A stretch of DNA of 10,025 bases, taken from the IMG/VR virus record IMGVR_UViG_2693429733_000018. The stretch is one strand, 5' to 3'. The notes under the pieces were generated by a model that was not told the origin of the DNA, did no database searches, and saw nothing but the letters and a program-made list of their open reading frames with translations. Within the stretch, counting starts at the first letter, position 1. Each line of letters opens with the position of its first letter. Source of the DNA: a virus (taxonomy: Duplodnaviria > Heunggongvirae > Uroviricota > Caudoviricetes). The translations under genes were made by a program, and so were the position numbers. Positions 638-717 of the stretch are shown here, piece after piece.

Positions 638-717
638 CCGCCATTAGCTTATCAGGAAGAGCAGACGACACGATAACAGGGTTGTTGGTGCGGGGGCGGG
701 TCCCCGATGGCGGTCCA
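638..717 (+). pseudogene. Degenerate tRNA-like element (acceptor and D arm conserved with the tRNA-Arg TCG of clusters B/C; anticodon arm replaced, non-canonical 6-nt T-loop)
   Basis: Acceptor CCGCCAT...ATGGCGG-T-CCA and D-arm are present, but the 28 nt between D and T arms form no anticodon stem and the T-loop reads GCGGGT instead of TTCAAGT. Confidence 0.5.

Follow-up and report, generated by a model that had tools for sequence, protein, structure and literature searches.

Between the intact tRNA genes ileZ and argO, the window (by which we mean the whole 10,025-nucleotide stretch of DNA analysed here) carries an 80-base tRNA-like element at 638-717 that we identify, with fair confidence, as a pseudogenised and non-decoding allele of argN, the tRNA-Arg-UCG gene of the ileZ-argN-argO operon of lambdoid prophages, Shiga-toxin prophages included. 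The element fills the argN slot at the orthologous position between ileZ and argO. It has suffered both a replacement of the anticodon arm and damage to the T-loop, and these are two independent lesions, evidently combined by recombination among prophage alleles. The ileZ-argN-argO cluster is, according to existing annotations, a long-known trait of Stx and lambdoid phages, and tRNA pseudogenes have long been a known feature; the replaced-arm allele is a previously undescribed and very common tRNA pseudogene, of which we found no description in the accessible full-text literature.

The DNA of the window makes up the late-regulatory region of at least one E. coli lambdoid prophage, and ARAGORN finds three tRNA clusters in it. 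Its features are the following.

51-452, with a second copy at 1710-2009: Q antiterminator gene fragments.
516-544, plus strand: weak promoter-like site of cluster A, TTGCGG-17 nt-TATTAT.
Cluster A: ileZ and argO callable by ARAGORN, the degenerate element in the middle slot.
555-630, plus strand: intact ileZ of cluster A, anticodon CAT (ARAGORN; Rfam tRNA, 72.5 bits).
731-807, plus strand: intact argO of cluster A, tRNA-Arg(TCT) (ARAGORN; Rfam, 68 bits).
1504-1693, 4038-4227, 6447-6636 and 6914-7123: four copies of STnc100, the Rfam name for the PR'-leader RNA.
2613-3671: DNA adenine methyltransferase.
3712-3961: cluster B, with ileZ, argN (TCG) and argO (ARAGORN).
3795-3871, plus strand: intact argN of cluster B, tRNA-Arg(TCG), our comparison reference (ARAGORN; Rfam, 58 bits; canonical cloverleaf, z = -2.85).
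4253-4588, minus strand: IraM-like ORF.
5019-6187, minus strand: IS3-family transposase, the sole transposase of the window.
6121-6370: cluster C, with ileZ, argN (TCG) and argO (ARAGORN).
6204-6280, plus strand: intact argN of cluster C, tRNA-Arg(TCG), 100% identical to the cluster B copy (ARAGORN).
7346-9199: 617-aa ORF corresponding to the RefSeq 'SASA family carbohydrate esterase', with small ORFs downstream.

The promoter-like site of cluster A was read off the sequence and lies under the scan threshold; its homologue 5' of cluster B, TTGAAG-17-TATTAT at 3674-3702, was reported by the scan. A terminator-like hairpin (492-511) lies just 5' of the cluster A site. On its 3' side cluster A has no terminator like that behind clusters B and C, and is followed by an AT-rich stretch (830-1440) holding a 117-aa ORF (918-1271, plus strand) with no NCBIfam match. 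A minus-strand ORF at 609-896 overlaps the degenerate element and is taken as a mechanical ORF only.

The window has late-region modules, made up of the Q 3' end, a tRNA cluster and the PR' leader RNA, in a stack of three to four within 7 kb, and these are partly 100% identical; the repeat pairs are 89-388 with 1710-2009 and 3706-4005 with 6115-6414. No complete E. coli genome holds at least 80% of the window in one place, which points to an unusual recombinant or possibly to an assembly chimera. The IS3-family coding region reaches up to the ileZ start of cluster C. Identity of cluster C to cluster B starts at 6115, just 6 nt 5' of ileZ, and the IS3-side junction at this position removes the promoter region of cluster C. 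The junction is preceded by 4839-4978, where the beginning of the 617-aa ORF recurs in truncated form (89% identity to 7336-7475). At 876-897 (minus strand) of another locus, L007, the Rfam models of the anti-sRNAs AgvB and AsxR match in part and below threshold; these matches lie directly 3' of STnc100 on the opposite strand and are cut by the end of the locus; within the window, Rfam reports neither AgvB nor AsxR at the gathering threshold.

The degenerate element itself is composed of parts that are retained from argN and parts that are not.

638-717, plus strand: degenerate argN allele, tRNA-like, 80 bases; left uncalled by ARAGORN and by the Rfam tRNA model; outside 663-701, a homologue of argN.
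638-662, plus strand: retained 5' part, comprising the acceptor 5' strand (638-644), U8-A9, the D-stem (647-650/659-662) and an 8-nt D-loop with GG.
663-690, plus strand: 28-nt replacement segment, AGACGACACGATAACAGGGTTGTTGGTG, in place of argN position 26, the anticodon arm and the variable loop.
691-706, plus strand: T-arm remnant, with stem CGGGG/CCCCG and the 6-nt loop GCGGGT.
707-717, plus strand: retained acceptor 3' strand, discriminator U and CCA, identical to argN.

It begins with CCGCCAT at 638, its CCA ends at 717, and it is set off by 7 nt from ileZ and by 13 nt from argO; a sequence-only reading of the window had placed it between these two genes in cluster A, and the coordinates it gave are exact. 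Alignment of clusters A and B, which that reading had proposed as a check, reveals a mosaic with argN homology on both sides of 663-701. The acceptor stem, the D-arm and the CCA-proximal part are, as it had claimed, those of argN in clusters B and C. The 5' part shares 24 of 25 bases with argN and has in addition a 1-nt deletion (one A) in the D-loop, and the stretch 702-717 (T-stem 3' strand, acceptor 3' strand, discriminator U and CCA) is identical at all 16 positions. The sole base change in the 5' part is a C>T in the D-stem, where a G.U pair is still formed. The element has a canonical 7-bp acceptor stem (CCGCCAU/AUGGCGG) followed by U and CCA, as well as a canonical D-arm with a 4-bp stem (GCUU/GAGC, including the one G.U pair) and a loop, AUCAGGAA, that contains G18G19. 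Between 638 and 717 no anticodon can be identified, U33 is lacking, and there is no 5-bp anticodon stem closing a 7-nt loop. The canonical 7-nt T-loop of the TTCRAnY type is likewise missing: at 696-701 stands GCGGGT, correctly described in the sequence-only reading as a non-canonical 6-nt loop, where argN of clusters B and C has TTCAAGT. Folded as a whole, the element adopts a cloverleaf-like structure of -28.9 kcal/mol with z = -1.29, against z = -2.85 for argN.

The gene-finding tools agree with this anatomy. Whether run by default or in pseudogene or intron mode, ARAGORN makes no call on the window allele, and the Rfam tRNA model returns nothing for 638-717 at the gathering threshold (29 bits); neither, then, scores the element as a canonical tRNA with an anticodon, the result that had been named beforehand as the one to speak against degeneracy. 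A wider Rfam search of 600-760 at E<=10 returns no family match, only the cut end of ileZ and noise. Loci L003 and L007 were used as controls for the Rfam searches, and the L003 allele, whose T-arm is normal, has no match to the tRNA model at E<=1. With relaxed settings, ARAGORN reads alleles of the phiP27 type as 'tRNA-?(aaca)' or 'tRNA-Cys(aca) with a 4-nt intron'; we judge both the 4-base anticodon and the tRNA-Cys with a 4-nt intron implausible. PGAP leaves the slot blank in most records, and one variant, in the RefSeq record of E. coli EC20017429, is tagged 'tRNA-OTHER'.

Relative to argN, 23 nt (positions 26-48) have been exchanged for 28 nt. The segment aligns with the argN arm no better than shuffled sequence does (46-59% of 5,000 shuffles align equally well), which argues for block replacement. 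Derivation of the segment from the argN arm through point mutation was rejected on the same alignment. The sequence-only reading had described the replacing segment as lacking a stem; the replacement is confirmed, while the lack of a stem has to be qualified, since a weak, chance-level hairpin can be drawn, albeit one with no 7-nt anticodon loop. It can take the form of a 7-bp stem with a 3-nt loop and three G.U pairs (CGAUAAC-AGG-GUUGUUG) or of a 5-bp stem (ACGAC/GUUGU) with an 11-nt loop, and its stability of -5.2 kcal/mol (z = -1.27) is equalled by 22 of 200 shuffles. Across 78 copies the segment shows just three single-base changes. Two of these disrupt pairing in the MFE hairpin: G10C, present in 13 copies, and T20G, present in 1 copy, which also breaks the 5-bp tRNA-register stem.

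A database search with the segment, another check that had been suggested, locates the allele and yields no donor. Elsewhere in 1.7 Mb of related prophage loci there is no segment k-mer of at least 13 nt, and shorter matches are not clearly above chance (5 12-mers against 3.5 expected; 22 11-mers against 14.8). A scan of 185,579 species-representative genomes finds the segment's 24-mer core, matched exactly, in that of E. coli alone (locus L201), which indicates a young allele. A 9-mer, GATAACAGG, is shared with what we take to be a conserved motif of 23S rRNA and of the I-SceI site; this link was dismissed as chance.

The arm replacement and the odd T-loop also occur separately, and the core was therefore not replaced in one event. 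In phiP27, L026 and L003 the replaced arm is combined with a normal T-loop, TTCGAGT. An intact anticodon arm is combined with the T-loop GTCGGGT in L007 and GGCGGGT in L035, and in these the downstream spacer is as in cluster A of the window. The T-loops can be arranged as a series, TTCAAGT, TTCGAGT, TTCGGGT, GTCGGGT, GGCGGGT and GnCGGGT, leading to a G-run of 4-16 G, and the 6-nt loop of the window is one step in this series with its slippage-prone end. The sequence-only reading had taken the patchwork for replacement of the tRNA core rather than point decay. This is borne out for the arm, where the edges fall sharply at the D-stem and T-stem junctions, and fails for the T-loop, which appears to be a separate lesion of point mutation or slippage.

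Several further observations concern the G-run in the T-arm remnant (691-701 in the window, and homologous sites). Depending on the copy it comprises 4 to 16 G, and the U8>G change goes together with long runs. The run is a possible hypermutable marker, with sequencing error possible in individual contigs.

The degenerate allele is widespread. Counting the same 100-nt stretch at an identity of at least 90%, we find near-identical copies in about 1,820 of 5,426 complete E. coli genomes, almost always unannotated; intact argN is present in fewer (1,213). At 100% identity, the stretch is carried by phage mEp460_ev081 and by the isolated phages vB_EcoS-733R4, -640R1, -716R1 and -813R8. In the Stx2e phage phiP27 (AJ298298) only ileZ and argO are annotated, and the gap between them carries the identical 28-nt segment. 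The degenerate allele is compatible with viable phages, as phiP27, mEp460_ev081 and the four vB_EcoS phages attest.

We also surveyed the middle slot in 178 ileZ...argO frames from IMG/VR. It is occupied by tRNA-Arg(TCG) in 97 clusters, by the replaced-arm allele in 71 and by other forms in 10, and a callable middle tRNA is absent in 77 of the 178. The ten other forms are tRNA-Lys(TTT) (two), tRNA-Arg(TCT) (one), an odd call (one) and six that cannot be called, being either arm-deleted (L133, L158, L163) or acceptor-mismatched (L128, L192, L169); these are independently broken alleles.

The arm-deleted alleles represent a second independent degenerate form of about 67 nt, in which the anticodon arm is largely deleted and the acceptor stem, D-arm, T-arm and CCA are kept. 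The same middle-slot scaffold is also found with other anticodons (L134, L141 and PPompW-type phages, LC567822 and others): the tRNA-Lys(TTT) variant has two compensatory anticodon-stem changes and C33, and tRNA-Arg(TCT) is another anticodon variant. Such variants suggest that the slot is evolutionarily labile and not merely decaying.

Variation was examined in 78 copies of the replaced-arm form, representing 21 alleles. All stem changes among them are one-sided and pair-breaking, and the number of compensatory changes is zero. The acceptor 3' strand bears two independent, uncompensated G>A changes (6 of 78 copies), U8 is changed to G in 11, and in 68 the T-loop has a length other than 7 nt, ranging from 4 to 17 nt via G-run slippage. 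Acceptor and T stems are perfectly paired in the major allele; across the sample the acceptor stem is perfect in 72 copies, the T-stem is paired in 75, and the D-stem pairs are standard in all 78. The argO genes of these loci, in contrast, include a T-stem in which a C-G pair has become G-C, a compensatory swap and as such a signature of a functional tRNA. Per site, pi amounts to 0.148 in the T-arm, roughly 20 times the value of ileZ (0.007), with spacers at 0.03-0.05. Outside the T-arm it is about 0.013, which is about twice that of ileZ and below the spacers, in a sample too shallowly diverged to dismiss constraint on the acceptor stem, the D-arm and the 28-nt segment. Uncompensated stem changes together with indels set the element apart from its functional neighbours and are those of relaxed constraint, with the parts outside the T-arm little diverged.

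We propose the following history and fate for the element. A single event would have replaced argN positions 26-48, that is, the anticodon arm and the variable loop, by 28 unrelated bases, and the loss of the arm would have removed the anticodon and hence the arginyl-tRNA synthetase identity elements C35 and U36. Arginyl-tRNA synthetase uses the anticodon identity bases C35 and U/G36; lacking an anticodon and these bases, the RNA of the element should be neither charged nor able to decode. Separately, the T-loop would have lost the TTCRAnT motif and turned into a G-run, which may now vary through slippage. With a promoter-like site upstream, although a weaker one in cluster A, and intact tRNAs on both flanks, the element is very likely transcribed with the operon. 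Its perfect 7-bp acceptor stem, 5-bp T-stem and CCA mean that RNase P probably still recognises it and cleaves at its 5' end. Such a cut would incidentally free the 3' trailer of ileZ and the leader of argO, and the excised product would be either turned over or left to persist as an inert tRNA-like RNA. Loss of argN would be tolerable because host tRNA-Arg species already read CGA and CGG, as we infer from the known E. coli tRNA set. The flanking genes ileZ (AUA) and argO (AGA/AGG) serve the rarest codons. The element may spread as a passenger of successful prophage late-region modules; its prevalence above that of intact argN could hint at an advantage, for which clonal oversampling is an equally good explanation.

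Could the remaining structure be maintained for a purpose? RNase P on its own is able to separate polycistronic tRNA precursors of E. coli, and the element might be processing punctuation, a non-decoding acceptor/T-stem minihelix with CCA that selection retains in order to give RNase P a cutting site between ileZ and argO. The retained parts are those that RNase P needs (7-bp acceptor stem, T-stem and CCA), the acceptor stem and the T-stem are intact in 72 and 75 of 78 copies, independent arm-deleted alleles of the L133 type likewise keep the acceptor stem, T-arm and CCA, and the spacers to the neighbours measure merely 7 and 13 nt. We nevertheless hold selection for processing to be unlikely: a young pseudogene would show the same retention, several lineages go on carrying acceptor mismatches without compensation and the loss of U8, and a cut by RNase P at the 5' end of argO would part the neighbours without the element.

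The clean boundaries of the exchange, which lie exactly at helix junctions as in artificial tRNA scaffolds, raise a different idea, namely that the allele encodes a functional non-decoding small RNA that displays the 28-nt hairpin on a tRNA scaffold and acts as a regulator or as a decoy for tRNA-binding factors, tRNA-targeting toxins or nucleases, or defence nucleases. The low variation of the segment (three variable sites in 78 copies), a prevalence exceeding that of intact argN and the presence of the allele in viable phages would fit such a role. Were it true, a tRNA-Arg gene that lambdoid prophages could spare would have become the source of a stable, processed, non-decoding RNA, a natural example of a re-used tRNA scaffold, and this would explain why the allele is commoner than intact argN in complete E. 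coli genomes. The variation nevertheless points the other way: there is no covariation, the commonest segment variant (G10C, 13 copies) breaks a hairpin pair, and the hypervariable T-loop length and the loss of U8 argue against a conserved L-shape. The hairpin is moreover no stabler than shuffles, the element matches no Rfam family and the 24-mer core is confined to E. coli among the species representatives. A small RNA of this kind strikes us as improbable.

tRNA genes are frequent integration targets, and the sequence-only reading had offered a relic of integration or of recombination within the tRNA as the origin of the patchwork. An integrase scar usually exchanges the whole stretch that runs from the crossover to the 3' end. 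The lesion in 638-717, by contrast, is internal, with both tRNA ends present and in register and with the T-stem 3' strand and acceptor 3' strand identical to argN. The window has no duplicated 3' tRNA fragment and no extra partial copies; no integrase or foreign block adjoins the element, whose neighbours are a Q fragment, tRNAs and an ORF; and no mobile element carrying the segment occurs in the 1.7 Mb of related loci, its 24-mer core being found in E. coli only. The damage that satellites cause on integration at the acceptor stems of tRNA genes (PMC10111431) differs in its pattern from the element as well. A true break does exist in argO of the same prophage clusters (L070, L174) and illustrates the appearance of such a scar; for the element an att site within the tRNA gene, left by site-specific integration or excision, is very improbable. 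Of the two origins suggested, recombination is upheld by the shuffling of alleles, and integration is not, the two halves of the tRNA being contiguous and in register, with neither a 3' duplicate nor an integrase.

In L070, L174 and three more IMG/VR loci, argO diverges abruptly right after the anticodon loop, with ...CTTCTAAGCA before the break and GCTGTGGTTGCACTCC... after it; this looks like a genuine integration or recombination breakpoint.

It is scarcely credible that the element is an unconventional decoding tRNA with an expanded anticodon loop of 8-11 nt, for example a frameshift or quadruplet reader: relaxed ARAGORN calls on phiP27-type alleles and the PGAP tag tRNA-OTHER on one allele speak for it, but the window allele is never called and has no U33, we know of no bacterial splicing route for a 4-nt tRNA intron, the T-loop is degenerate, the ArgRS identity bases are gone and L003 is without an Rfam match.

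As a pseudogenised argN allele, the element is an unannotated or inconsistently annotated tRNA-like remnant in about one third of complete E. coli genomes and in several sequenced phages. Phage tRNA counts and codon-supplementation arguments for Stx and lambdoid phages should allow for a non-functional middle slot in about 40% of clusters, and Lys(UUU) and Arg(UCU) variants of the same slot exist as well. For typing, the G-run with its variable length might be a usable marker.

How does the element compare with known systems? With argN of 933W and the Stx2a phages it has in common its position, acceptor stem, D-arm, T-stem, discriminator and CCA; it differs in the 28 unrelated nucleotides that stand for the anticodon arm and variable loop, in a D-loop that is 1 nt shorter, in the T-loop GCGGGT and in being uncallable. 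The gap of phiP27 and the 'tRNA-OTHER' of EC20017429 have the identical 28-nt segment on the same scaffold, but these keep a 7-nt T-loop, TTCGAGT, so that the window allele with its G-rich T-loop is the further decayed. In artificial tRNA scaffolds the anticodon arm is replaced by a cargo hairpin. The element resembles them in having another stem-loop where the anticodon arm would be, alongside a retained acceptor stem, D-arm and T-arm, an architecture which suggests that its RNA could be processed like a tRNA; in contrast to them, the T-loop of the window allele, which is needed for the L-shape, is degenerate, and any cargo function would be hypothetical. With bacterial tRNA pseudogenes, finally, the element shares homology to a tRNA, the loss of defining features and uncompensated changes across copies. 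It stands apart from them in that its main lesion is neither a truncation nor scattered point decay but the clean replacement of an internal block, and in that it is carried by about one third of complete E. coli genomes.
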